NCBI GenBank assembly: GCA_003507445.1
Contig: DNVR01000008.1
Location: 29,083-93,082 of the forward strand
Direction of reading: 5' to 3'
From: Candidatus Moraniibacteriota bacterium
GTDB lineage: Bacteria > Patescibacteriota > Minisyncoccia > Moranbacterales > GWC2-37-73
DNA: 64,000 nt
Shown here: piece by piece, positions 1,258-39,200 of the stretch
Numbering within the stretch: position 1 is the first letter of the stretch
How the letters are laid out: every line of letters starts with the position of its first letter
The notes under the pieces: model-generated
Seen by the model: the letters and a program-made list of their open reading frames with translations, nothing else
Databases searched by the model: none
Told to the model about the DNA's origin: nothing
Translations under genes and position numbers: made by a program

Positions 1258-1389
1258 TTTAATCATTGGAGATTCATAAGAAATATGCTATATTTTATTC
1301 ATAAATCAGTAATGGTTGTATTATACTAAAAGTTCGCATAACCTGCAACTTTCAGCACACTATCAAACATTAAGTTCGCATATAAACGA

Positions 1390-1591
1390 GTTCATCTGAA
1401 ATGTCGCTCCGCTACGCTCGCTCCATTTCAGATGAACGCGCGCGCCTGCCGTCGCTGTCATCTGCTGTGTTGCTTCTCCCTACGGTCGTGAGCAAACACA
1501 TCAGATAACAGCGCCTATCCGAAATTTCCCTCGCCCCGACTGCTGTCGGGACTCGTGAAACATCGGATCAGGCGCGCGCGTTCTGCGAAAT
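1390..1591. repeat. GC-rich structured repeat element, copy A (full core ~202 bp)
   Basis: Near-identical to 2791..2992. Contains nested stems: GTTCATCTGAAATG...CATTTCAGATGAAC, CGCGCGCGCCTG...CAGGCGCGCGCG and CCCGAC-TGCT-GTCGGG. GC ~58% in an AT-rich background. Confidence 0.8.
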
Positions 1592-1640
1592 AGCGAAAAA
1601 CATACCTTTATTAATAATTTTTTCAAGCCCTTTTGAAATA

Positions 1641-1676
1641 AAAAAATCCCCCGGTCAATCACCAGGGGACGGCAGT
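1641..1676 (-). terminator. rho-independent terminator for the minus-strand small ORF
   Basis: Hairpin CCCCTGGTGATTGACCGGGG followed by a T-run on the minus strand, immediately after the TGA stop at 1677..1679. Confidence 0.55.
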
Positions 1677-1843
1677 CATCTTTTCAGATTTTTCATCACT
1701 GCGTAGAATGAAGCTGCTGCTCCGCCAACCATTACAAGTGCGAGTAATCCGATTGCAATGGGCTCGTAAATCTTCGGGTAGGATATCGTGGAAACCGTAA
1801 AGAGTGCCGTCCCTACGCCAAAAACAAAAGCATCCCATTTCAT
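1677..1843 (-). CDS. small hydrophobic membrane protein (55 aa), not in supplied ORF track
   Basis: ATG preceded by AAGGAGG with 6-nt spacing. Translation MKWDAFVFGVGTALFTVSTISYPKIYEPIAIGLLALVMVGGAAASFYAVMKNLKR. Terminator downstream. Local GC ~50%. Confidence 0.45.
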
Positions 1844-2077
1844 AAAGAACCTCCTTGAGAGTTGATATTACAACACTTCAATGACTTCCTATCCTACACA
1901 CGAAGTATTGAAATGTCAAGTGGCAATATTTCAAAAGGGCTTGAAAAAATTGGGCTCAAAATAAGGAGTGTATGTTTTTCCGCTACATCGCAGAACAAGC
2001 AATATCTGGCTCAAAAGTCTTGCCTAATATATAATTAAATAAAGGAGTGCAAGATTTTTTCGACCCAAATTTGCCCT

Positions 2078-2192
2078 TCGCTACGCTCGATCAAACTTCA
2101 GATATTGCTAGACGTTCATCTGAAATTTTCCTCGCCCCGACTGCTGTCGGGACTCGTGAAACATCGGATCAGGCGCGCGCGTTAGATGAAAT
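2078..2192. repeat. GC-rich structured repeat element, copy B (internal-deletion derivative)
   Basis: Has the 5' arm (TTCGCTACGCTCGATCAAACTTCAGATATTGCTAGAC), GTTCATCTGAAAT, then jumps to the 3' part TTCCTCGCCCCGACTGCTGTCGGGACTCGTGAAACATCGGATCAGGCGCGCGCGTT. Confidence 0.7.
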
Positions 2193-2255
2193 ACCCAGAA
2201 ATTTCTTTTTTTATTTTAATATTTTTTTGCAATTCATAATTCTTAATACAAACCC

Positions 2256-2630
2256 ATGTTTAATCCAAATCGTCCACCATCAGAACAATTAGAAAATAAA
2301 ATGTTCACTATCGAGCTTAAGGATAATGAGTCCATTGTCGTTAAGGAAATGGAACCAGGTGTATTTAAAATAGTAGATAATAGTATAACAAAAAAAGATG
2401 AGCATCAGATGGCGGGCGAAACATTCATAGGCTTCGGAGAGTGGGATGATGAGGTTGAAGATTTAGATAGTCGTAGTAGCGATGCACGATATTTTGATAT
2501 GTCGGAACATCTCAGATGGGAAGATGTTGAGTTTATTGGTGATGATGAAATAAAGGCGCCATCACTAGATCGGCTGAAGCAAGCGTTGCAACACATAAAA
2601 ATACTTCCTTATAATCCCGAAGATATGTAA
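2256..2630 (+). CDS. hypothetical acidic protein
   Basis: 124-aa ORF between repeat copies. No recognisable motif. Confidence 0.3.
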   Translation: MFNPNRPPSEQLENKMFTIELKDNESIVVKEMEPGVFKIVDNSITKKDEHQMAGETFIGFGEWDDEVEDLDSRSSDARYFDMSEHLRWEDVEFIGDDEIKAPSLDRLKQALQHIKILPYNPEDM

Positions 2631-2748
2631 TTGCAAAATACATTAAGGAAAAAGAAATTTCTGGGTACATCACATAACAAGGCACATGCGGTTCAAAAAT
2701 TTTGCATCTTTTAAAATTAGAGGTGTGCAAAATTTTCTCTCCCAAATT

Positions 2749-2992
2749 TTTTTCGGCTATGCCTTCAGAAAAACTTCAGATATGCCTAACGTTCATCTGA
2801 AATGTCGCTCCGCTACGCTCGCTCCATTTCAGATGAACGCGCGCGCCTGCCGTCGCTGTCATCTGCTGTGTTGCTTCTCCCTACGGTCGTGAGCAAACAC
2901 ATCAGATAACAGCGCCTATCCGAAATTTCCCTCGCCCCGACTGCTGTCGGGACTCGTGAAACATCGGATCAGGCGCGCGCGTTGTGCGAAAT
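2749..2992. repeat. GC-rich structured repeat element, copy C (full, includes 5' arm)
   Basis: 2791..2992 nearly identical to 1390..1591. The 5' arm CCCAAATTTTTTTCGGCTATGCC...CTTCAGATATGCCTAAC is shared with copies B and D. Confidence 0.8.
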
Positions 2993-3443
2993 GCATGTTT
3001 TCCTTTTGGGCTAACGCCCTGGCTCAAAAAAGAATCCGATTTTGTTTTTTCTTTATTTTAAAGAGGGGTTAAAAAGGTGTTTTTCTGCTCTTTGGGGAGC
3101 AGAAAAATTATACAAAAATTATACATATTGATTTTATTTATAAGCCATGTTAACTTATTATTATCAGTTAAGAATTTGTTTGTAGATTATGTTCTTTGTA
3201 TCAATTGATGTTATCCCACAGAAAGGAGGAAACTGCTTATGCGGAAGCTTATTGTGCTGTGCGCAGTTGTAGCTCTGGCTTAGAGACCATACCGATTTGG
3301 CCGGCGTCGTCGCCCGGCCGCCAGAGAAACATTCGCCCCCGATTCAAGAAACGGAAGAACCGTCATGGTGTAACCGTGGATTCTTGAATTGGCATAACCG
3401 ATAAACCGCCAACAAATGGATATACCCCCAAGGAGGTAATACC

Positions 3444-3542
3444 ATGACGACCAGCCGTGGACGACCTGTTTTCGCTCAGATGATCAAGGGAGAAGAAGCT
3501 GCCGGCAAGGTGAAGAAAGCCGAAGGTACAGCACTGGTCTAG
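3444..3542 (+). CDS. micro-ORF (32 aa) with consensus SD inside a GC-rich island
   Basis: AAGGAGG-7nt-ATG. Encodes MTTSRGRPVFAQMIKGEEAAGKVKKAEGTALV. Strong terminator 80 nt downstream. GC ~55%. Confidence 0.25.
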   Translation: MTTSRGRPVFAQMIKGEEAAGKVKKAEGTALV

Positions 3543-3622
3543 GACCGTGAAGTGGCCGGCCTCGTCCTTCCGGCCAAAATGGGGAAAGATAATCGTCAAC
3601 CGGACATCATGTCCATAACCTG

Positions 3623-3658
3623 ACCGCTCTCGGCATTGCTGAGAGCGGGTCTTTTTTT
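3623..3658 (+). terminator. rho-independent terminator
   Basis: ACCGCTCTC-GGCATTGCT-GAGAGCGGGT followed by TTTTTTT. Confidence 0.7.
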
Positions 3659-3863
3659 ATTTGCCACCCCAATAAATACCACGTATAATTACCAATAAGG
3701 AGTATTGGCTCCAGGCCATTCACCCTTAGCCCCTCTTCCCAAAACAAAGACGAAATTCAATTAATTCATTACAGAAATGCTATTCCTCTGCTGAGGAATG
3801 AAAAGAAAAAACAAACATCGCACAACAACGAGTATCCGGTTTCGACTTTTTCGAAAGTCTTCA

Positions 3864-3948
3864 CCCAAATTTTTCTTTCGCTATGCTTGGTCAAACTTCA
3901 GATACTGCTAGACGTTCATCTGAAATGTCGCTCCGCTACGCGCGTTCG
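3864..3948. repeat. GC-rich structured repeat element, copy D (large internal deletion)
   Basis: 5' arm, GTTCATCTGAAATGTCGCTCCGCTACG, then CGCGTT. Shares its 5' arm with copies B and C. Confidence 0.6.
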
Positions 3949-4052
3949 GAAAAAAACTAAAAATTTCCTCTCTATTTTGAAAAGAATTTTTTGGCAATTT
4001 TGTTCGGTCGAACTAATTTTAAACAATTCAAAAAATTAATTTTAAAAACAAA

Positions 4053-4898
4053 ATGATGAGAAATAAAAAAGAAAATATTACCATAATTATAATTATCGTA
4101 ATTTTAACCTTATCCGCAGGAGTTATCGGCTGGATGCTAGCGAAGAACTCGCAAGATGTTTCAAAATCTAAGATAGTTAATAATTCAAAACTAATAAGCA
4201 CAACAGAACAGTCTTCGGAGCCGACAAATAAAATTTCTGAATCGTTACCTCCTGTTGATGAAATCGCTATTAACGATTTTTCCATAGCTATTGTCGCAAA
4301 CAATGATCTGCACTGGTCTAGTCGCGCAAATGTCAAATCAGATACTTCAATTCAATTTCGCTGGACAACAACAGGTGCGGATAGTTGCAATATAAGTGGC
4401 GGAAATTTATTTAATTCGAATACAAATTTAGCAACAAACGAAACAGGAATTAAAAAAGTTGCAGATGATTTTTCGAACGGAATCTACACATTAAAATGTG
4501 TAAGAAAATTAGATAATAAAACAGCAGAGGCAACTCCTATAATACTCAATGTCACACCAGCTAAAAAGTTAGTCATGTGCATGAAAAAATGCGGAAATGG
4601 CGGAATACCCATTCAGCAGAATATGAATCGCTTCTCTGGTGAAACAGTCCAAAAAGTCCGAGCGTGTTTTGGAAATTTTGCGTTGGATTGTCCAACACAG
4701 GATGTTACCAAAAATGCCGAATGGCTAACTAGTAATAATTCGATAATTACTTGGTCAAAGGATTATACGGTCGATGGAGAGAAGATAGTGGATGATGTGT
4801 ATCCCAATAAAACCCTGAAATCAGTCGGTGCAGGCAATGCTGAAGCCAGTGTTACATATTCTGGTTATTCATATGTTGTGAGGGTTGATGTGAAGTAG
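4053..4898 (+). CDS. hypothetical secreted/membrane-anchored Cys-containing protein
   Basis: 281-aa ORF with N-terminal signal-anchor ITIIIIIVILTLSAGVIGWML. No recognised catalytic motif. Confidence 0.5.
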   Translation: MMRNKKENITIIIIIVILTLSAGVIGWMLAKNSQDVSKSKIVNNSKLISTTEQSSEPTNKISESLPPVDEIAINDFSIAIVANNDLHWSSRANVKSDTSIQFRWTTTGADSCNISGGNLFNSNTNLATNETGIKKVADDFSNGIYTLKCVRKLDNKTAEATPIILNVTPAKKLVMCMKKCGNGGIPIQQNMNRFSGETVQKVRACFGNFALDCPTQDVTKNAEWLTSNNSIITWSKDYTVDGEKIVDDVYPNKTLKSVGAGNAEASVTYSGYSYVVRVDVK

Positions 4899-5083
4899 AC
4901 ATATTAAAAATAATTACTAAAAACTCTTTATTTTTAGGAAAGAAAAACTTTAGTTTCATTGCTTGAACCCGGCATATGTGGCTCGAAAAATTGACACTAT
5001 TAAAAAGTTCCAAATCAAGCATCATATTTGACGAAAATGAGTTAATTGGATATAATTGGATGTAGTTAATATATCCAAAAACT

Positions 5084-6172
5084 ATGGCTAATATAAAGCA
5101 AAAAGATATTAATATTGCAGACAAATTTTCAAAAAGGCTTGATAATATACCTGCGGAAATAATTTCAAAAATCGCCAAGATTGATGAATTAAAAGGCAGC
5201 TGGGTTTCTGGCACTCAACTAAGCTCGCAAGCACTGGGTCGTCTCAAGCGGTCTGTTTTGATAACCTCGACTGGAGCATCAACTCGTATTGAGGGTGTGC
5301 AACTTTCTGATGAGGATATTGAAAAAGTGATGCGCGGTATAAATATTCAAAAATTTGCTGACCGCGATAAGCAAGAAGTCAAGGGTTATTACGAACTTTT
5401 GGAAAATGTCTTTAATTCTTGGGGGAGTTTGAAATTCAACGAAAGTTCAATAAAACATTTCCACAAGGAGTTATTGAAATATTCAGAAAAAGACCAGGGT
5501 CATTTGGGTGATTACAAATTTGGAGAAAATAAAGTCGTCGCATACGATCATGAAGGAAAAGAGGTTGGGATAATTTTCAATCCCACTTCGCCATACCTCA
5601 CGCCCAAAGAAATGATTGAGCTTATTGAATCAACCAATTTTTTGCTTGCTGAAAAAAAATACCATCCGTTGCTAGTAATTGCAAATTTCCTGGTTGAATT
5701 TTTGGCAATTCATCCTTTTAAAGATGGAAATGGAAGAGTTTCTAGAGTTTTGACGAATTTATTGTTGCTTCAAAATGGATATCTGTATATGCCGTATGTT
5801 TCACATGAAAAACTAGTGGAAGACAATAAAACAGATTATTATCTTGCACTTAGGAGAAGTCAAAAGACTTTTCATTCAAAAAACGAAGACATTTCTCCAT
5901 GGTTAGAATTTTTCTTTACAATTTTATTACGACAATCACAATTTGCGATTGAATTATTGTCAAAAGAGAATATTGAAAAATTACTATCAGAAAGACAACT
6001 TGCAGTTTGGAAATTTTTTCAACAAGTTGAAATTACTGGAACAGGCGAGATTGTTGCTGGAACAAATATTCCGCGGCCAACCGTCAAGCAATCACTTGAG
6101 GTATTGTTGAAGTTGAAAAAAATAGAGAGAATAGGCCAAGGTAGAAGTGTGAGATATAAAAAGGTTGCTTAA
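5084..6172 (+). CDS. fic: Fic/DOC family protein (putative AMPylator) with N-terminal inhibitory helix and C-terminal winged-helix-like region
   Basis: Canonical Fic motif HPFKDGNGRVSRVL (HxFx(D/E)GNGRxxR). Upstream STRIEG matches the (S/T)xxxE(G/N) inhibitory motif of class II Fic proteins. Confidence 0.85.
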   Translation: MANIKQKDINIADKFSKRLDNIPAEIISKIAKIDELKGSWVSGTQLSSQALGRLKRSVLITSTGASTRIEGVQLSDEDIEKVMRGINIQKFADRDKQEVKGYYELLENVFNSWGSLKFNESSIKHFHKELLKYSEKDQGHLGDYKFGENKVVAYDHEGKEVGIIFNPTSPYLTPKEMIELIESTNFLLAEKKYHPLLVIANFLVEFLAIHPFKDGNGRVSRVLTNLLLLQNGYLYMPYVSHEKLVEDNKTDYYLALRRSQKTFHSKNEDISPWLEFFFTILLRQSQFAIELLSKENIEKLLSERQLAVWKFFQQVEITGTGEIVAGTNIPRPTVKQSLEVLLKLKKIERIGQGRSVRYKKVA

Positions 6173-6416
6173 GATTGAATAATAGAAAGAAAATTAAGAA
6201 GTTAGGTTCGCCAAAATACGTAAAAGTTTATATTTCTAAAAAGCGGAATCAAGGGATTTCGCTTTTTGTTATGGATTTTTTGGTGTATAATGAATGTATA
6301 AAATGATCAATGAGCAGTTTTCAATTTTCATATAAATTAATAATTTTCAATTTGAAAATTAAAAATATTGAAAATTAAATGAAAATTGTGAATTGTAAAT
6401 TGAAAATTGTTAATCT

Positions 6417-12374: not shown

Positions 12375-12435
12375 AATCGCTGATAAAGCGCGGATAATAA
12401 ACGCTGATATACACGCTGATTATATACGGTCATAA

Positions 12436-12466
12436 AAATAAAAACCCTCTTGTTGAGGGTTTTTAT
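12436..12466. terminator. bidirectional rho-independent terminator between convergent genes
   Basis: AAAACCCTC-TTGTT-GAGGGTTTT with A-run upstream and T-run downstream. Flanked by an outer IR CGCTGATATACACGCTGA/TCAGCGTGTATATCAGCG. Confidence 0.7.
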
Positions 12467-12513
12467 GGTTTCTGCGTAAAATCAGCGTATTTTTTTCAGC
12501 GTGTATATCAGCG

Positions 12514-12858
12514 TTATTTCACTTTTTCCATAAACTTTGCAAAGATTGCTGGGTTTTCGGCAGCCATTTGTGAAAGCACTTTGCGGTCAGTTTCAATGTT
12601 TTTTGATTTCAAGATTGCAATAAATTTGCTATATGTAATGTCGAACAATCGAACTGCATTGTTAAGTCGCAAAATCCAAAGAGCTCTGTTTGTTCGCTTT
12701 TTGGCTCGACGATCACGATGAGCGTATTTTCCAGCTTTGATAACCGCTTCTTTGGCAGCAACATAATTTTTGCTACGACGCCATCTGAAACCTTTGGCCA
12801 TTTCTAATACATTTTTTCTACGTTTTGATGCGGCTACACCGCGCTTTACTCTGCTCAT
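12514..12858 (-). CDS. rplT: 50S ribosomal protein L20
   Basis: MSRVKRGVAASKRRKNVLEMAKGFRWRRSKNYVAAKEAVIKAGKYAHRDRRAKKRTNRALWILRLN matches the L20 family. The track ORF start lies upstream, so the start is placed at the MSRVKRG methionine. Confidence 0.9.
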   Translation of the reverse strand: MSRVKRGVAASKRRKNVLEMAKGFRWRRSKNYVAAKEAVIKAGKYAHRDRRAKKRTNRALWILRLNNAVRLFDITYSKFIAILKSKNIETDRKVLSQMAAENPAIFAKFMEKVK

Positions 12859-14040: not shown

Positions 14041-14452
14041 TGTATATATGGTGGAGTTGATGGGAATTGCACCCATGTCCAAAATTGACAATCCAAAATC
14101 CTCTACAAGTTTAGTTTATTTTTTCTCACCGAAGCGAGTGCGACTAATTAGAGTAGAGAATAAACAAAACCTCTAAATGCCGTTTTCAGAATTATTTCGC
14201 ATTTTGTGTCCAAAAAACCACAAAACACTATTCTCATGTTTGACACCGAGGTCTGCTTACGAGAAATCAGCAGTTCGATGGCTTCGAGCCTAAGCTAAAG
14301 CAGGTGAAAAACCAGCAAATGCTTGCGCAAATGTAGCTTTCGCCTTTGATATGAAGTTTGCACTTATATCTTCGCCACACTTTTTACGATACAGCAGCGG
14401 TGATCGACTTGCATATTTTGAAAAGTACAACCTGTCGAAACTAAACAACCCC
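14041..14452 (-). ncRNA. ssrA: tmRNA (ssrA)
   Basis: Minus-strand 5' GGGGTTGTTTAGTTTCGACAGG matches the tmRNA 5' consensus. 3' end reads ...GGACATGGGTGCAATTCCCATCAACTCCACCA with encoded CCA. Acceptor pairs 7/7 including the G3-U wobble. Adjacent to smpB. Confidence 0.75.
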
Positions 14453-14629: not shown

Positions 14630-15100
14630 TTAGGAATTTTTCATGGCTCTTCCTATTTCTCTCTCACTCTCTCTTTTGGTGATGTCTGAGCGCTTGTCGT
14701 GAGCCTTTTTTCCGCGCGCTACAGCGAATTCCAACTTAACTAGGCGTCTCTTAGTATACACACGAAGAGGTACTAATGTCAAGCCTTTTACGTGTAATTT
14801 TCCAATCAGAGACTTGATTTCTGACTTTTTGACCAAAAGCTTGCGAGAGCGTGTCGGATCGTAGGCTATTTTAAAGCCAGCGAAGGGATAATGTGAGATG
14901 GTGGCGTTAGTAAGGTATAATTCTGAATCGTGAATCGTGACAAAACTGCCCTTGAGGCTTATGTGCCCCATTTTTGTTGATTTTGTTTCCGCCCCAGACA
15001 GCACTAAACCAGCCTCATATTTGTCGAGAAGCTCGTAGTCAAAATGCGCTCTTTTGTTGGTTGCTAATGTTGGCATATTCCTATAATGCCTTAAAATCAA
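14630..15100 (-). CDS. smpB: SsrA-binding protein SmpB
   Basis: 156 aa; LVLSGAETKSTKMGHISLKGSFV and YDPTRSRKLLVKKSEI typical of SmpB. Confidence 0.85.
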   Translation of the reverse strand: MILRHYRNMPTLATNKRAHFDYELLDKYEAGLVLSGAETKSTKMGHISLKGSFVTIHDSELYLTNATISHYPFAGFKIAYDPTRSRKLLVKKSEIKSLIGKLHVKGLTLVPLRVYTKRRLVKLEFAVARGKKAHDKRSDITKRESEREIGRAMKNS

Positions 15101-30241: not shown

Positions 30242-33200
30242 ATGGGTGTAATCGGAATAAGGAAAAATATAAAAAGCAAAAATTGGGGACTGAAAATTAT
30301 TTCAGCGTTTTTTGCTTTGAGTTTCTTTTTTGTGGCTGTCGCTTCAGCTGAAGTCGCTCCAACAATCTCTGAAATTTCTCCAAATAATGGGTTGCCAGAG
30401 GGTGGAACAAGTGTGACGATAACTGGAACAAATTTTTCTCAAAGTACAATAGATGCAAACACGAAATTGTTGATTCAAGGTAACGGCACAGGTGCAAGCT
30501 TCGTTGATTCTGAAATAACCCCAAAGACAGTTACCGCTGTTGGAAATGTCACCCAATCTTCTGCGCAGTCAAAATTTGGAGGATCAAGTGTTTATCTTGA
30601 TGGAAATGGCGATTATTTGTCTTTAGCGGACAGCGAGGATTGGGCTTTTGGCACAGGAGATTTCACAATGGATATGTGGGTTAAAACAACCGAATCTGAT
30701 GGTTTCTTGCTTTCTCAGATGCCTTCAAATGGTGCAGCGGGAGTTGCTAGTTTTTATTCAGTTGTGAGTGTGGATGGAAAAGTTATTTTTGTTCCTGATT
30801 ATGTTTCCTACCCAAGTCATCACACTATAACATCAACAGTTTCTGTTAATGATGATGCTTGGCATCACATCGCATTTGTTAGGAACGGCGCATATATAAG
30901 AATGTATATTGATGGAACAGAAAGTGGCACAGCTTTAAATATGGGCGCTGGTTTTACTATGACAAATTCTGCTGAACTTTTGAAAATAGGTAGCATTGGG
31001 CTTCCAGAAAATTACAGTCCTTATGGTGGGTATATTGATGAAATCCGTGTTTCCAAGGGGATTGCTCGCTGGACCAGCAATTTTACACCTCCATCTTCTG
31101 AAAATCATTTGCAATCAACATTAACAATCGGTGGAACTTCTGCCACAAATATTGCAGTTACAAGCCCAACTACAATTACCGCCACAACTCCTGCTCACGC
31201 TGCGGGTGCAGCTGATGTAGTGGTTACAAATTACGACGGTCAATCTGCAACACTGACAAGCGGATATACTTTCAATGCTGCTCCAACCATTTCTGCAGGA
31301 GCTGTTACTCCAGCGAGTGCAAAACTTACGGGTGGCGACACAATTACAATTACAGGATCTGGTTTTTATGGAACTCCAAGTGTAACTCTTGGTGGAACAG
31401 CTGCGACTGCTGTTACAGTAGTAAATCCAACCACAATCACCGCGACAACCCCAGCACATTCTGTTGGTGCTGTTGATGTTGTGATTACAAATGAAGATTC
31501 GCAAAGCGCGACACTTGCAAACGGATTTACATTCACGGAACTTCCACCGACAGTTTCAGGAATTTCTCCAAGTGCTGGTTCACCTGCTGGCGGAACAAGT
31601 GTGACGATAAGTGGAACTAATTTTTTGGTTGGAGATGTTGATACATACACTAAAGTGTTGCTGCATGGTGATGGCACGGGAGCAAGCTTTGTTGATTCTG
31701 AATTAATCCCAAAAGTAGTTACAGCAGTTGGCAATGCTACTCAATCTGCTGCGCAATCTAAATTTGGAGGGAAAAGTATGTATTTTGATGGGAGTGGTGA
31801 TTATCTTGATTTGGCAACCTCTGCTGATTTTGGTCTCGGCACAGGTGATTTTACTGTGGATTGTTGGGTAAATTTCTCCACTGTAACTAATGCAATATTT
31901 GTGAATACCACTAGTTCAGCAAATGGATTCTTTTTTCAATACTATAATAATGCTTTTACTTTTGGTCAAAATAATGTAGGTTTTGTAATTAATACACCTT
32001 GGACGCCTTCTATAAACACTTGGTATCACATAGCAGTGACAAGGGCGAGTGGCACAACCAAAGGCTTTATTAATGGAACGCAAATAGCATCTGTTAGTGA
32101 TAATTATAATTACGCTAACAATATATTGCGCGTAGGTGAAAGCGTTAATGGTTATCTAGATGAAGTCCGTGTTTCAAAAGGGATTGCTCGTTGGACTAGT
32201 AATTTTACACCGCCGTCTGCTGAATATCACTCACAACCAATGTTAACTTTTGGCGGAATCTATGCTACAAATGTCGCAGTCACAAACCCAACTACAATTA
32301 CCGCTACAACTCCTGCTCACACTGCAGGTGCAACTGATGTTGTCGTCACAAATTACGATGGACAAAGTGCAACACTAACAAGTGGTTACACTTTCAATCC
32401 TGCGCCAACAATTTCTGCTGGAGCAGTTTCTCCAGCCAGTGCCTTGAAGACAGGAGGCGACACAATTACAATCACGGGAACAGGATTTTATGGCACACCT
32501 ACCGTAACTTTGGGAGGAACAGCTGCGACTGCTGTTACAGTAGTAAATCCAACCACAATCACCGCGACAACCCCAGCACATTCTGTTGGTGCTGTTGATG
32601 TTGTGATTACAAATGAAGATTCGCAAAGCGCGACACTTGCAAACGGATTTACATTTACAGAACTTCCATCAACAGTTGGATCAATTTCTCCAAATAATGG
32701 AACTGTTGCAGGTGGAACCAATGTGACGATTACGGGGACGAATTTTATTGAAAACAGCGCAACAGGTGGAACGATTACAACCTCTGGAGAATATACAGTG
32801 CATACATTTACAGGAAGTGGAACGTTTGTGCCGAATAATGAGATGGATGTTGAGGTTTTGGTTGTTGCTGGCGGAGGTGGAGGTGGAGGTGGAGAACCTA
32901 GTGCTGGCGATTCTGGTGGTGGTGGAGGAGCTGGAGGATACAGAACTGCAAATCTTACAATATCATCAGAATCTCATAATGTGACTGTGGGTGCTGGAGG
33001 CGCAGGTGCAGCAGGAACATCTTTACCAGGAAATAAAGGGAATGATTCAATTTTTGATTCCATAACTGCAGCAGGTGGAGGTGCTGGTGGAATAGAGGGC
33101 GGAAGTGGTGGAGCTGGAGGATCTGGAGGTGGAGCTGGAGGTCTCTGTTCAGTTCCAGTTTCAGGAGGAGCAGGTAATACGCCAGCAACGACACCAAGTC

Positions 33201-36200
33201 AAGGAAATAATGGAGGATTTACACCCGGGACAACTTGTTCTGGGCGAGCTGGTTCTGGCGGTGGTGGTGCTGGCGGTGTTGGAGGTGCAGGAACCACTGT
33301 TAGTGGCGCTGGTGGTGCGGGCGTAGCAAGTGATATTACCGGAACTTCTATAACAAGAGCTGTTGGTGGTGCTGGCGGACAAAGCGGCAGTGGAACAGGT
33401 ACAGCAGGAGCTGCAAACACTGGAAATGGTGGAAAAGGAGGAGGAATAAGTTCTGCTGGTGGTGCAGGAGGAAGCGGTGTTGTTATTGTTAGATATTTGA
33501 CCCATAAACCAGTAGTTACCATCGGTGGAACTTCTGCTACAAATGTCGCAGTCACAAGCCCAACCACCATCACTGCCACAACTCCCGCACATACCGCAGG
33601 CACAGCTGATGTGGTGGTTACGAATTATGACGGACAATCTGCAACGCTGACAAATGGATACACTTTCAATCCTGCGCCAACAATTTCTGCAGGAGCAGTT
33701 TCTCCAGCCAGTGCAAAACTTACTGGAGGCGATACAATCACAATCACTGGAACGGGATTTTATGGCACACCTACCGTAACTCTTGGAGGCACAGCTGCGA
33801 CTGCTGTTACAGTAGTAAATCCAACAACAATCACTGCGACAACTCCCGCACATTCTGTTGGCGCTGTTGATGTTGTTATTACAAATGAAGATTCTCAATC
33901 CGCAACTCTTACCAATGGATTCACTTTCACAGAACTTCCACCAACACTAAGTTCAATTTCTCCTGATAACGGTCCAGTAGCAGGGGGAACTAATGTGACG
34001 ATAAGTGGTACGAATTTTGTCGCTGGGTCTGTAAGTGCAATTGGCGGAACAATAACAACTGATGGTGATTATACGGTACACACATTTACAGGTAGTGGAA
34101 CATTTACAGCTGATAGTGATATGCCTGTGGAGGTTCTGGTTGTTGCTGGTGGTGGAGGTGGCGCAGGAATGGCTGAATCTGGTGGAGGTGGAGGAGGTGG
34201 AGTGCAACATCATACTTCATGGCCAATAAATGCTGGTGCAAATTATAGTGTTGTAGTTGGAAATGGTGGTTTAGGTGCTACAAGTGTTTCAAATGGTGCA
34301 AATGGTGCAAATTCATCTTTTGGCGAATTGATTGCTAATGGAGGTGGTGGAGGAGGTGGATTTATCGGTTTAACTCCAGGATCTGGAGGTTCAGGCGGTG
34401 GATCTACGCGAGGAGTTGCTGCAGGATTGAGTAATCAAATTTCAATTAATGGTTCAAATTCTTACGGAAATCCTGGAGGTGTTGGATGGCCAAGTGGATA
34501 TACGGCTGGAGGTGGTGGAGGTGCTGGTTCTGCGGGAGGAAATGCTACTAGTGGAGTGTATCCAGATGGAGGTGTTGGAGGTGCTGGAAGAGCATTTGAT
34601 ATTTCAGGAACATCAACATATTATGCTGGAGGTGGTGGAGGAATTTATGCTTATGGTGGTATTGGTGGTGGAGGCAATGGTAATATGGGAACAGTTGAAT
34701 CTTATAATGGTGTGGCTAATACTGGAGGTGGAGGAGGTGGAGGAGCTAATGTAGTTGGAGGAGATGGTGGTTCTGGAATTGTAATAGTGAGATATTTGAC
34801 AAAGGCTAAATTGCCAACCGTAATAATCGATGGAATTGCAGCTACAAATGTTTCACTTGTGAACCCAACCACAATAACAGCAACCACTCCTGCTCACACT
34901 GCAGGTGCAACTGATGTTGTCGTCACAAATTACGATGGACAAAGTGCAACACTAACAAGTGCGTTTGAATATCACAATTGGATTACGGCAGGAACGTATA
35001 CCTCAACAGTTAAACCTCTGGCTAATGTTGGATTTGGAAACATTGATTGGGTTGCTGGCACGCCTGCTAATACTAATTTGACAATGCGAGTAAAATCTTG
35101 CACCTCTGCTGATTGCAGCGACAAACCAAGTTGGTCTGGATGCGACTTGGCTGCGCTGGACAATGGTACCGATATTTCCGGTAAGGGTTGTGTGGTGGAT
35201 GGCCAAGGTTATGTTCAATATCAAGCATATCTTTCAACTGATTCAAATTCTGCTCAGCCATATCTCGACAGCGTCACAATTTCAACTCAACCAGAATATT
35301 CCAAAACATTTTTAAGTCTCATTTCTTCTCCTTTTGATACGGGAAATGAAAGCAACAGTGTTCAAAAAATTTCTTGGACTGCAACAAATGACAACTTGGC
35401 AACTCAGGGACAAGTGGCAATACAAATTCGAACTGCACCGGATAATGGCGGAATTCCTGATTTTACAAATTCAGTTTGGTGTGGGCCGACTGATTGCAGC
35501 GGCACAACAAATTCAACAACAGCTTTTGCAATCAGTTATTACACTGACAAAACAGGGGCTCTTGCGATAAATGCAATTAACAAGGATCTTAGTGATGATC
35601 GTTGGATTCAATATGCAACATTCTTGAAATCAGCTGATGGAACTTTGACTCCGACATTGACTGATGTGACGATGCAATATGCATATAACACTCCACCAGC
35701 AATTACAATTGACAGCAACCCAATATTTTTAAAGCAAAATGCAGATGGAACTTTCTCTGTTCCATACACCTTAAGTGAAACTTATGATGATTTTGGTAAC
35801 ATTCCTCACGGAACAGCTGGTTCTCCGATTAAAGCACTTCTTTTTTATCAACCGAAAAATGACATCACAATTGAAGAACTTACAAATGTTCGAACAGGAA
35901 TTGTCACCCTCAATAATCCAAGCAATCTTCCAATTCCATCGCAAGGTTCAATGCTGATTGGCGATGAGTTGATGACTTTTGATTCAGTTGGAGCAACTGG
36001 AAATCAAAGAAACATCACAGCGCGTGGAATTGCTTTTGCAACTTCATATCCAACCACGGCTGCTGCACACTTGGCAAATTCCGCAGTATTTTTTGCAACT
36101 TCAGCTTCGATTCAAACAATCGATACGCTTGTTGAGACGGGCATAGTTGGCGCTGAGGCATCCGTATCAAATATGTTCTCTTGGAATCCAAGAACTGATG

Positions 36201-39200
36201 TCAATACAAATTTGAATGGTAACAAACTTTCAGACGTGGTTTTCAAAGTTGCTGCCAACGACGCTGATTCAACCAACATTAATAATATCGGACAAAGCAG
36301 TGCGACCACTTCGCAAGTTCTGGATTTGGAATCTCCTTTGATTAAAAATGTCACTTCATCTTCGGCTGATGGGAAATATAACGCTGGAAAAAATGTGGAC
36401 GTCACGATTAATTTTGCTGACAGTCTTGGCAACGCAAAGAATGTGACTTCAACAGGCGCTGTCACGATAGTTTTGGAAACTGGCGTTAATGATTATGAAT
36501 GCTTGATCCCATCTATCACAAACGCATCAAGCGCATCTTGCACATATCAAGTCCAAACAGGCGATGTTAGCGAAGATCTAACTGCAATTTCTGTAAGCGG
36601 AACAATTAAAGATCAATTCCAAAACACTCTTTCAAACTTTGCGATTCCAGCAGGACAAAACATTGCTGATTCAAAAGCTATTGTTATCGATACAATTTCT
36701 CCAATCATTTCAGGTGTGTCGCCAGCAGCAAGTGCGTTTGTAAATTCAATCACTAGCGCTAATGGTGGCTCTGATATTTCGTATGAAGCGACAGAACTTT
36801 TAAAAACAGGATCATATGTTAAATTCACTTCAACTTCGGGAACAGATTTGAACACCGAATATCTTTGCACTTTGCAGGGAACAGCACTTGAGGTTGGCGT
36901 GCACAGTGGTTTTGAAATCAAACAAGATGCAAACAACTGCACTGAAGTTCAAAGCGCGCTTCAAAGTGGTTCTGTTTATACAATGACAATTCACGCCATT
37001 GACGAAGCTGACAATGCCAGTGACCAAACAATTGCAAATATTAATTTTGACACAACCAATCCGACAGCTAGCGTAACTTCCCCATCAAACGATGCCTTTT
37101 TCAACAGCATTACAACTGGCTCAGATGTTTCATATAATCTTGATGAACAGTTGCAAGCAGGCAGTTATCTTAAATTCACTAGAACTGCTGGTAGCGCTGA
37201 TGGATCTTCTCCGCGAACTTGTAATTTGACAGGGACTGAGCTTGAAGAAGGTGATCATAATAATGTGGACTTGAACGCTGTCTGTGGAGGATTTGCTTTA
37301 GTAGATGGTGCAGTTTATTCAATTGATCTTTTCGCTAAGGACTTGGCTGGAAATGAGGCAAATGCAACACAAAAAACAAATGTTACTTTTGACCAAACTG
37401 CTCCAACACTCAACTCATTTACTTCAGACAAGGCCAACAACACGCCAGCTACAGCTTATGGCGCAGGGGAAGTGATTGATATTAAGGCGGTTTACAGCGA
37501 ATCATTGGCAGTTGGCTCAACAATGACAGTTAGATTGGAAAACACAGCAACGCCCGCTGTTGATGTTGTGCTCGATCAAATTGCTGGAAATGTGCTTTCG
37601 GGAACATTTGTTGTGGACGGTCCGCGTAAGGGATATGACACGGCTGATTTGACTTTGCGATCAATTGTTTCTCAAAATGCTATCGATCAAGCTGGCAATG
37701 TTAAAACTGATTCGGCGATACCGTTTGGACAAAACTTAGGAGACAACAAAGACATTGCGATTGATACAGGAACTCCAATTCTGGAAAGTTTTGCTGCTCA
37801 AAAACTTCCTGAGAATTCAACAAGCGGTTCTTACAAAGCAGGAACGGAAATAAAAATAACCGCGACATATTCCAAACCAATTGCCTCTGGCGAAATCACG
37901 CTGCATCTTAATACTCAAAATGGAGCTGAAGACATTGAAAACATTGTATTGTCAACAATTTCAGGTTCTACAATTTTCGGCACACACACTGTGCAAAATC
38001 TGGACAACGCTGAAGACTTGAAAGTTTTTGCCATCACTGCTCAAAGCGTTACTGACTTTAAAGGTAATGTGCTTGATAGAACAGGAACAATGACTGAATA
38101 TGACGCATATTTCACTTCGCTTGTTGGCGAAAACATTTCTGCTGTTACAAATATTTCCAATTTCAAAATTGACACAACTGCGCCAACACTTGGAGCAACG
38201 CCAATTGCCATTGCAAATGTCGCAGGAAAAACTAGCAGTGCAACCCCAGTGATAACATTGTCTGCAACTGATAATGATATTTCTAAAGCAATCTTCTCAT
38301 TGGATGGGGGAACTTCTTGGTGTGCTCCAATTGATTATGGTGCAACAATAAACACATTTGACATTACATCTAGTGCTTGCGGTGGTTCTGCTTCCAACGA
38401 AGTAAAAACTGTCACAGTCAAGTTCAGCGATGTTGCTGGCAATGAGAGTGCAACTTCCAGCGCTTCAGTTGAATATGATAATTTGAAACCACAGTTGCAA
38501 ACAATTACTGCTGATGTGGTCGGCGGAATCTATGGACCAAATTCAGTTATTAAAATCACTGCAACATATGACGAAGACATTGCCAGTGGAACATTAGTTG
38601 TCAATCTTAACAATGGAAAGCAGCTTACGATTAATACTGTCGAAACGGCCAGAACACTGGTGGCAAATTATACTGTTGGCGCAACTATTAGTGGCGAAGA
38701 CACAAGCGCGCTTCGTGTAGCTGCAATTGTTTCGCAAGCTGTTTCTGATTCAGCTGCCAACACGCAAGACGGAACCAGTCTGGCTGGAATAACTGCCAAC
38801 ATCGACACTGATAAAACAATTATAATTGATACTACTGCGCCAAGCGCTGCTGCGCCAGACGGCTCGATTGTTGCTGACAGGGCAAGCGAAGAAAACAAAA
38901 TAAAAATTACAATTTCTCCTGATGATTGGGGTGTGGCAAAGGATGAAATGACCGCTCAAATTGCGCTGATGGACACGGTGGTTGCTTGCAACTTTACTGG
39001 CGCAAATGCAGCAGTCTTCAACAGTGAATTTCCAAAAACATTTACATATGATGACCTTGCAGGCGCAGTGAAAAAAGTTTGTGTTAAATTGACTGACAAG
39101 GCGGGGAACATTTCTTCTGATTTCAGTGTGGTCACTCCAAACACTCCTGAAAATTTCGTGTATACTGATCTTACCAGCGCGACGTTTACAGGTGCGATTT

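Follow-up and report, generated by a model that had tools for sequence, protein, structure and literature searches.

A GC-rich repeat family in a Moranbacteria-like genome that may mark a decaying integron-type cassette array

A 64,000-nucleotide stretch of DNA from a Candidatus Moraniibacteriota bacterium (contig DNVR01000008.1, positions 29,083 to 93,082), referred to as the window, carries near its left end a family of GC-rich repeats interspersed with small genes, and this repeat array is the subject of the present report. The genome is a groundwater genome (Rifle, Colorado), and homologs of the proteins encoded in the window are named Candidatus Moranbacteria. The array forms part of an island on the plus strand at 1263..6240 (edges approximate), which lies between a gene for a 249-amino-acid (aa) protein and an EamA gene and holds, besides the repeats, an orphan gene of 281 aa and a SoFic-like Fic gene. 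In L022, a relative with conserved gene order, the 246-aa homolog of the flanking gene (68% identical) is followed by a terminator, the EamA promoter, and EamA, with no island, and window positions 6243-6300 align to the L022 intergenic region before EamA. Because the L022 homolog runs directly into the terminator and EamA, ~1263-6240 was taken to be an inserted island. This agrees with an initial annotation of the window, which had named foreign DNA among its candidates: relatives have the two flanking genes without the insertion between them. Relatives L024-L028 do not carry the array at this locus and have different genes instead. A pilin gene occupies the place of the island in L028 (85%), a very large open reading frame (ORF; >1100 aa) lies there in L024 and L026, and the closest relative, L027 (81%), has the C terminus of a tyrosine recombinase on the minus strand right after the terminator of the flanking gene. 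The L027 recombinase scored 109.1 bits against the integron integrase model TIGR02249, 108.6 bits against XerD, and 107.3 bits against XerA, and it sits at the place and in the orientation expected for an integron integrase gene (intI). The intergenic spot 3′ of the 249-aa gene is an insertion hot spot, found empty or occupied by a large ORF, a recombinase, or a pilin gene.

The initial annotation had described two nearly identical full cores and two shortened derivatives, GC-rich in AT-rich DNA, and comparison of the copies bore this out. Copies A (1390-1591) and C (2791-2992) are direct repeats of 202 nucleotides (nt) each with 201/202 identical positions, the lone mismatch (1584/2985) being the base directly after GTT; their GC content is 55-59% in 100-nt windows, compared with ~36% for the window. 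Copy B (2063-2192) retains a 5′ arm, 13 nt of the core start, and the final 67 nt, and its gap sits between the direct repeats ATCTGAAAT and ATCCGAAAT. Copy D (3863-3948) retains the 5′ arm and, of the core, 28 nt at the start and ~6 nt at the end, its break points falling at the short direct repeats CGCTACGC/GCGCG. Both are microhomology deletions, in keeping with their earlier description as decaying derivatives, and in both the site ends are kept and the internal structure is gone. The 5′ arm reported for B, C, and D is indeed common to these three, and the homology of copy A to them starts exactly at G1390; among the four cores, homology extends from the G of GTTCATC to GTT. The core folds with z-scores of −8.6 (plus strand) and −9.4 (minus strand), none of 200 shuffles folding equally well, and all four stems named at the outset occur in the minimum-free-energy fold. 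Inverted repeats are present in every inter-repeat segment and begin exactly at the core 3′ end. The family is a single 2.6-kb cluster and not a set of dispersed copies, as no further copy was found outside 1330-3950 in the 64-kb window and 10 kb upstream of it. Blastn searches of phage and plasmid collections with the repeat gave no match, and exact and gapped pattern scans of genome, metagenome, and viral contigs gave no true match; five 18-mer matches in GC-rich phage contigs showed no extended similarity and were taken as chance.

The array is divided by G|TT boundaries at 1390, 1580, 2114, 2181, 2791, 2981, 3914, and 3944 into plus-strand units, in which GC-rich cores alternate with gene cassettes of 534-933 bp that hold small orphan ORFs and one GC-rich foreign piece. 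Each unit starts with TTnnnn..., which is complementary to a ...nnnnAAC site (R″) near its own 3′ end. An 11-nt L″ arm directly inside R″ pairs with an 11-nt L′ arm located 0-4 nt before the final G of the unit, giving the order R″-L″-variable structure-L′-R′ with site lengths of 131 (c1), 126 (c2), 101 (c3), and 156 nt (core). AAC of R″ occurs at 1435-1437, 1994-1996, 2676-2678, 2836-2838, and 3824-3826, and GTT stands at 8/8 unit boundaries. At the left end, 1319..1390 (plus strand) resembles an attI entry site: the direct repeats AAGTTCGCATA at 1330-1340 and 1372-1382 are 42 nt apart and end 7 nt before the first G|TT (G1390), upstream of which there is no site like attC, the site type carried by integron cassettes. 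The attI sites of integrons have a direct-repeat layout of this kind. A promoter scan placed weak promoter-like sites at 1267-1294 and 1298-1327, directed into the array.

The first unit, core cassette A (1391..1580), is noncoding and GC-rich. Its 190 bp consist of a 34-nt leader and the 156-nt site, in which R″ ATTTCAGATGAAC (1425-1437) and L″ GCGCGCGCCTG (1438-1448) are followed by a two-hairpin variable terminal structure (1449-1568), L′ CAGGCGCGCGC (1569-1579), and the G at 1580; its own start, TTCATCTGAAAT, forms an R box of 14/14 bp. Core cassette C (2792..2981) is identical to it. Between the two lie gene cassettes c1 and c2, separated by core remnant B (2115..2181), which has lost R″, L″, and the first hairpins but kept L′ and the terminal G|TT. 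In cassette c1 (1581..2114), a 55-aa membrane ORF lies in reverse (1676-1843, minus strand) and has a promoter-like site and a terminator of its own; the attC-like site of c1 is composed of R″ ACATCGCAGAAC (1985-1996), L″ AGCAATATCTG (1998-2008), and L′ CAGATATTGCT (2099-2109), ending with the spacer AGAC and G at 2114. As a separate observation, the hydrophobic ORF of c1 is flanked by long inverted ends (~60-70 nt; 1580-1640 and 1927-1996) that include a perfect 25-nt pair (1616-1640/1927-1951), and it could be an invertible or toxin-like module. Cassette c2 (2182..2791) contains a 124-aa ORF (2256-2630), whose homologs occur only in other contexts, and an attC-like site with R″ ACATCACATAAC (2667-2678), L″ AGGCACATGCG (2680-2690), L′ CAGATATGCCT (2777-2787), the spacer AAC, and G at 2791. 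The flanks of one homolog of the c2 protein (L019, 59% identical) look alike by eye (CGCCTATCCGAA(A)TTTC, AAAGTTCGCA, and TGTCGCTCCGC); this similarity was not significant (blastn E = 0.9; no nhmmer match; fold z = −0.5 and +0.2) and was not used as evidence.

Cassette c3 (2982..3914) follows core C. It holds a GC-rich insert (3240-3660), a remnant R″-L″-like piece (3008-3035), and an attC-like site with R″ ACATCGCACAAC (3815-3826), L″ ACGAGTATCCG (3828-3838), L′ CAGATACTGCT (3899-3909), the spacer AGAC, and G at 3914. The GC-rich stretch of c3 (3225-3665, plus strand; 45-57% GC) includes a 32-aa ORF (3444-3542), a strong GGAGG ribosome-binding site, and a clean terminator (3624-3658), and it had no match in plasmids, Rfam, Pfam, PADLOC, or PHROGs. 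Core remnant D (3915..3944) has kept just 28 nt from the beginning of the core and ~6 nt from its end. Beyond it, 3945..5036 is tentatively regarded as a degenerate cassette, c4, with a 281-aa orphan ORF (4053-4898), a weak R″-L″-like stretch (4957-4980), and possibly a decayed L′-R′ at ~5015-5036; an nhmmer match at 4966-4999 was not significant (E = 9.4). The 281-aa protein has no homolog except itself, and protein-guided searches of metagenome and viral contigs found no further contexts of the 124-aa and 281-aa genes. Short-read assemblies of the population (L010-L014, L005, and L006) break within the 190-nt cores, and therefore metagenome-assembled genomes of this lineage can be expected to lose or fragment the array.

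The pairing of each unit with itself was then quantified. The cassette start pairs with its own R″ at 18/21 positions in c1, 17/21 (26/30) in c2, and 15/21 in c3, and the first 7 bases pair at 7/7 (c1), 5/7 (c2), 7/7 (c3), and 7/7 (core). Cassette starts pair with their own site and not with those of the others (0/500 shuffles), and random 21-mers of the window matched the pairing of c1, c2, and c3 in 0.17%, 0.4%, and 3.8% of trials, respectively. The R″ partners of c1-c3 all end in AAC, followed by A and then L″, and the extended R box contains a conserved 2-nt mismatch. L-box pairing is 11/11 in c1 and the core and 8/11 in c2 and c3, with three compensated pairs among c1-c3 (two in c2 relative to c1, one in c3). 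For a covariation test, the sites of the three gene cassettes were aligned, each joined with the start of the cassette it belongs to. In this alignment 85.6% of the cells are paired, and 11/30 pairs are changed on both sides, values that none of 500 shuffles reached; sliding the partner as a control left 30-49% paired. Compensatory changes, raised initially as a mark of conserved structure, thus exist and connect the opening bases of a cassette with a site lying 400-850 nt downstream, but none occurs between the identical full copies. The three AT-rich sites (101-131 nt) are homologous over their full length with 78% column identity, and the 5′ arm of the initial annotation is their conserved L′-spacer-R′ half.

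When a unit is circularised, its 3′ part becomes one long imperfect hairpin composed of the R box, a small unpaired spacer, the L box, and the variable terminal structure. The circularised sites fold with z-scores of −6.1 (c1, bottom strand), −6.5 (c2), and −2.65 (c3). In 4/4 sites the bottom strand is the stabler one (bottom/top, −32.4/−26.2, −35.1/−31.9, −21.7/−18.4, and −72.6/−62.1 kcal/mol), and the top-strand GC skew is −0.07 to −0.26 in the site windows, the surrounding genome being positive. In reported attC sites the bottom strand is likewise stabler and the top-strand GC skew negative, AAC/GTT is the only conserved sequence, and the length is 57-141 bp (PMC5027507); the c1-c3 sites fall within this range, and the 156-nt core site lies slightly above it. 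Independently of the array, a ~20-bp perfect inverted repeat (AACGCTGATATACACGCTGA/TCAGCGTGTATATCAGCGTT) was seen around a bidirectional terminator at 12395-12525, between a small ORF and rplT; this hairpin is AAC/GTT-bounded like the array sites, and its sequence is unrelated.

We put at about even odds (a probability near 0.5) the interpretation that the region is a decaying integron-type cassette array without a nearby integrase, located in a horizontally acquired island of a Moranbacteria-like genome of the Candidate Phyla Radiation (CPR). Clusters of attC sites that have no integron integrase (CALINs) are defined by the presence of ≥2 attC sites on one strand at distances of <4 kb and by the absence of a neighbouring intI (PMC4889954), and here five plus-strand sites, called by hand without a reference attC model, lie within 2.5 kb with no intI. 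The likeness to CALINs and to sedentary chromosomal integrons such as those of the Vibrio cholerae repeats (VCRs) covers the tandem 0.5- to 1-kb units with small orphan ORFs and G|TT bounds, the unit start complementary to its own R″, the R″-L″-variable-L′-R′ geometry in which AAC/GTT alone is conserved, the mutual similarity of sites with long variable structures, the stabler bottom strand, and the lack of a nearby integrase (PMC4889954, PMC5027507). In such an array the GC-rich core behaves as a duplicated noncoding cassette that is almost entirely one 156-nt site. An Xer/IntI-family tyrosine recombinase, whose gene would lie elsewhere or have been lost, would bind the folded single strand at its R and L boxes and exchange one strand at G|TT; recombination between two sites would release a unit as a circle, and recombination with the entry site at 1390 would insert a circular unit. 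On this model, the latest unit to have been inserted would be intact core A, which adjoins the entry site and has the same sequence as the core at 2792-2981. It was also first as a repeat family that the VCRs were noticed. Because copies B and D are deleted, a remnant lies at 3008-3035, the distal sites are degenerate, and the population shows no variation, the array is probably in decay, with the recombinase lost or absent.

Several observations weigh against this interpretation. In a control scan, 7 non-array hairpins of the form AAC-arm...arm-GTT with ≥10/11 pairs occurred in the window, compared with 0.25 per strand in shuffles; the hairpin at 12395-12525 is among them. Since such hairpins recur 7 times outside the array, L-box geometry alone is not diagnostic, and the case is carried by its combination with serial G|TT boundaries, own-start complementarity, and common polarity. 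The extended consensus RYYYAAC/GTTRRRY is matched by GTTAGAT only, the R′ boxes being GTTCTGC, GTTAGAT, GTTGTGC, GTTCGGA, and GTTCATC. An attC site is expected to have a 5- to 6-nt unpaired central spacer per arm and 2-3 extrahelical bases on the L″ arm (PMC5027507); the sites described here lack that spacer, the core site has no unpaired bases at all, and the 1 nt on the R″-L″ arm versus 3-4 nt on the L′-R′ arm is the opposite of the canonical arrangement. R-box pairing extends over 21-30 bp (~60 bp in c1) in place of the expected 7 bp. Further departures from CALINs and chromosomal integrons are that one site type is 156 nt long with 58% GC in a 36% GC genome and that the host is a ~1-Mb CPR bacterium, very small genomes having been reported without integrons (PMC4889954). 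If cassettes were inserted at random, this would not account for the strict core/gene/core/gene alternation, in which a noncoding cassette takes turns with gene cassettes. The c1 ORF runs in reverse, and the start of c4 has no good inverted partner (12/21) and no convincing site. In addition, the region is built of abutting palindromes, and the geometry therefore reads almost equally well on the opposite strand. The geometry permits that orientation, and the side on which the unpaired spacer lies speaks for it; against it speak the direction of the ORFs (c2, c4, and Fic), the GC skew, the stability of the strands, the attI-like repeats, and the place of the recombinase in L027.

The missing enzyme also counts against an integron array. 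From 10 kb upstream to the end of the window, no gene with a recombinase, transposase, or reverse transcriptase (RT) domain is recorded, in accordance with the earlier remark that no transposase or RT is nearby; tblastn with an Xer/IntI fragment gave nothing in the window, and there is no PF00589-type gene or intI from −10 kb to +64 kb, so that the locus does not qualify as a complete integron. The contig of L027 ends inside the recombinase, leaving the IntI-specific domain and any adjoining array off the contig. None of the collections searched yielded a related element, and in 12 independent contigs from several Rifle samples the array is colinear and identical, with no structural variation. 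In sum, the region has the core features of integron membership, namely the AAC/GTT triplets, circular permutation, site length, strand asymmetry, and R and L boxes; it lacks the fine features (the extended consensus and the canonical position of the unpaired bases) and the integrase. It is taken to work like an integron array, strict membership being unproven. It is a speculative and rather unlikely extension that CPR bacteria have their own lineage of structure-specific cassette recombination, an integron analogue with an Xer/XerA-like recombinase devoid of the IntI domain, long folded sites with an extended R box and a GC-rich branched core, and a noncoding "adapter" cassette before each gene cassette, which would be either an independent invention or a relative of the integron ancestor.

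The same palindromes might be a cluster of nonautonomous elements resembling miniature inverted-repeat transposable elements (MITEs) or repetitive extragenic palindromes (REPs), in which the core is a unit of 1424-1594 bounded by terminal inverted repeats and c1-c3 are similarly bounded passenger carriers (GTT...AAC) that all entered a short tandem repeat at one and the same position. Indeed, the region can be described as abutting palindromes (1390-1437, 1438-1579, 1580-1996, and 1998-2109), 1424-1594 has ~25-bp inverted ends, other long hairpins occur in the genome, and deletion derivatives are a usual mark of miniature elements in decay; a short, GC-rich, highly structured intergenic form with such derivatives is shared with MITEs, REPs, and bacterial interspersed mosaic elements. 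Yet no boundary shows a target-site duplication, the transposase is absent, the repeat taken whole has no terminal inverted repeats and the units have none in common, and the copies are not dispersed over 74 kb; they have genes between them, and the bounds are G|TT. The inverted ends of c1-c3 differ except for GTT/AAC and GAAAT/ACATC, which one transposase would not recognise but structure-specific recognition would, and polarity is the same in 3/3 cassettes (left GAAAT versus right ACATC; spacers of 1 versus 3-4 nt). Moreover, the cores are identical but the adjacent AT-rich segments are only ~78% alike, which speaks against simple tandem duplication. We therefore consider such elements unlikely, and of the mobile element proposed initially, the broad sense holds, since cassette-delimiting sites for site-specific, structure-specific recombination fit the data, while the MITE anatomy does not. 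An alternative we regard as less likely still is inert debris, a scrambled foreign remnant whose repeats are rearrangement scars without site-specific function, past or present. It would account for the absence of detected mobility or variation, of a recombinase, and of anything related elsewhere, and for the deletion of two copies; random scars, however, would not give eight G|TT boundaries or 11 compensated pairs, nor would three cassette-specific complementary arm pairs be expected to share the same 2-nt mismatch and polarity.

It is improbable that the modules were shuffled by the chromosome-dimer resolvase, as in the pdif modules of Acinetobacter. The arms A(T/C)(T/A)TCGCAnAA resemble XerC/XerD arms, and the array arms AGTTCGCATAA, ATTTCGCAGAA, and ATTTCGCACAA are close to dif XerC arms such as ATTTCGCATAA. 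Short gene modules bordered by inverted tyrosine-recombinase arms are shared with pdif systems, as with C and D modules, segments bounded by one kind of inward-facing arm take turns with segments bounded by another (PMC13141974, PMC6449649), and the L027 recombinase scores as XerD/XerA as well as IntI. Nevertheless, no 11-6-11 boundary exists: the second arm is missing at 6-bp spacing (3/11 at c1), and the only pairs of inverted arms are separated by ≥14 nt. A cassette has unlike central regions at its two ends (CGCGCG versus CAAGCA), which blocks classical two-strand Xer exchange, and the sites are structured, 100-156 nt long, and on a CPR chromosome, unlike the 28-bp pdif sites. The structured noncoding RNA family suggested by the initial annotation, or processing stems in a long transcript, fares worst and is in our view very improbable. 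The very strong folding, the promoter-like sites upstream (1267-1327), and the lack of a terminator inside the core would suit it, but the repeats have no match in Rfam 15 at the gathering threshold or E ≤ 5, both strands fold equally well, as DNA palindromes would, and no other genome searched has a homolog. The identical full copies give no covariation, B and D lose nearly all structure and keep the boundary motifs, and the covariation that does exist spans 400-850 nt across genes, one of them on the other strand with its own promoter and terminator, as fits a circularly permuted DNA site. Both the MITE and the RNA readings are weaker than that of an integron-like array. CRISPR, retrons, IS200/IS605 ends, and plasmid single-strand origins were rejected, as cas, RT, and TnpA/TnpB genes are absent and the repeat spacing is wrong. 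A parallel for the chemistry is attP of the CTX phage, a folded single-strand Xer substrate; its inverted arms pair in single-stranded DNA, and one-strand exchange is the likely chemistry. It differs in its phage context, since here there are several units, another arm layout, and no phage.

Integrons are the classic bacterial platform for gene capture and gene shuffling. If the region is indeed an integron-type array, reduced episymbionts such as these ~1-Mb Moranbacteria-like organisms would also acquire accessory and defence genes by site-specific recombination of folded DNA, recombinases of this kind would accept a wider range of sequences and structures, and the array would offer defined sites that can be tested as the basis of a new tool for structure-specific recombination; even a merely dead remnant would still record cassette traffic into CPR genomes. 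The searchable literature holds no description of integrons in CPR bacteria. Integrons have been reported mainly from Proteobacteria and a few other phyla (PMC4889954), and a groundwater survey ran IntegronFinder on bins including CPR, giving no details (PMC12259885). Anti-phage genes are known to be stored in integron cassettes (bioRxiv 10.1101/2024.07.02.601686). Here, the gene that comes last in the island (5084..6172, plus strand) encodes a 362-aa Fic-domain protein (Pfam Fic, 55.5 bits), which matched the PADLOC SoFic anti-phage model over its full length (138.8 bits) and gave a weak C-terminal winged-helix match.

Outside the island, the 249-aa gene and the 344-aa gene before it (457-1206 and 14-241, respectively, plus strand) are tandem paralogs with a common C-terminal domain and a WKCG..C motif; they have no Pfam match and belong to a large Patescibacteria family (568 matches). 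An ordinary tmRNA gene (130 bits), which can serve as an anchor, adjoins smpB (14049-14452 and 14630-15100, both on the minus strand). A giant 3703-aa ORF (30242-41353, plus strand) contains Laminin_G, TIG, and Gly-rich domains, and its GC content of 0.42-0.50 is above that of the rest of the window. After this surface-protein gene, the intergenic region 41465-41580 contains tandemly repeated heptamers (ACAACTT/ATCAACTT-like, period 7), of which an inverted copy lies ~70 nt downstream. In another assembly (L016) the giant ORF was called as 4092 aa, suggesting strain or start-site variation.

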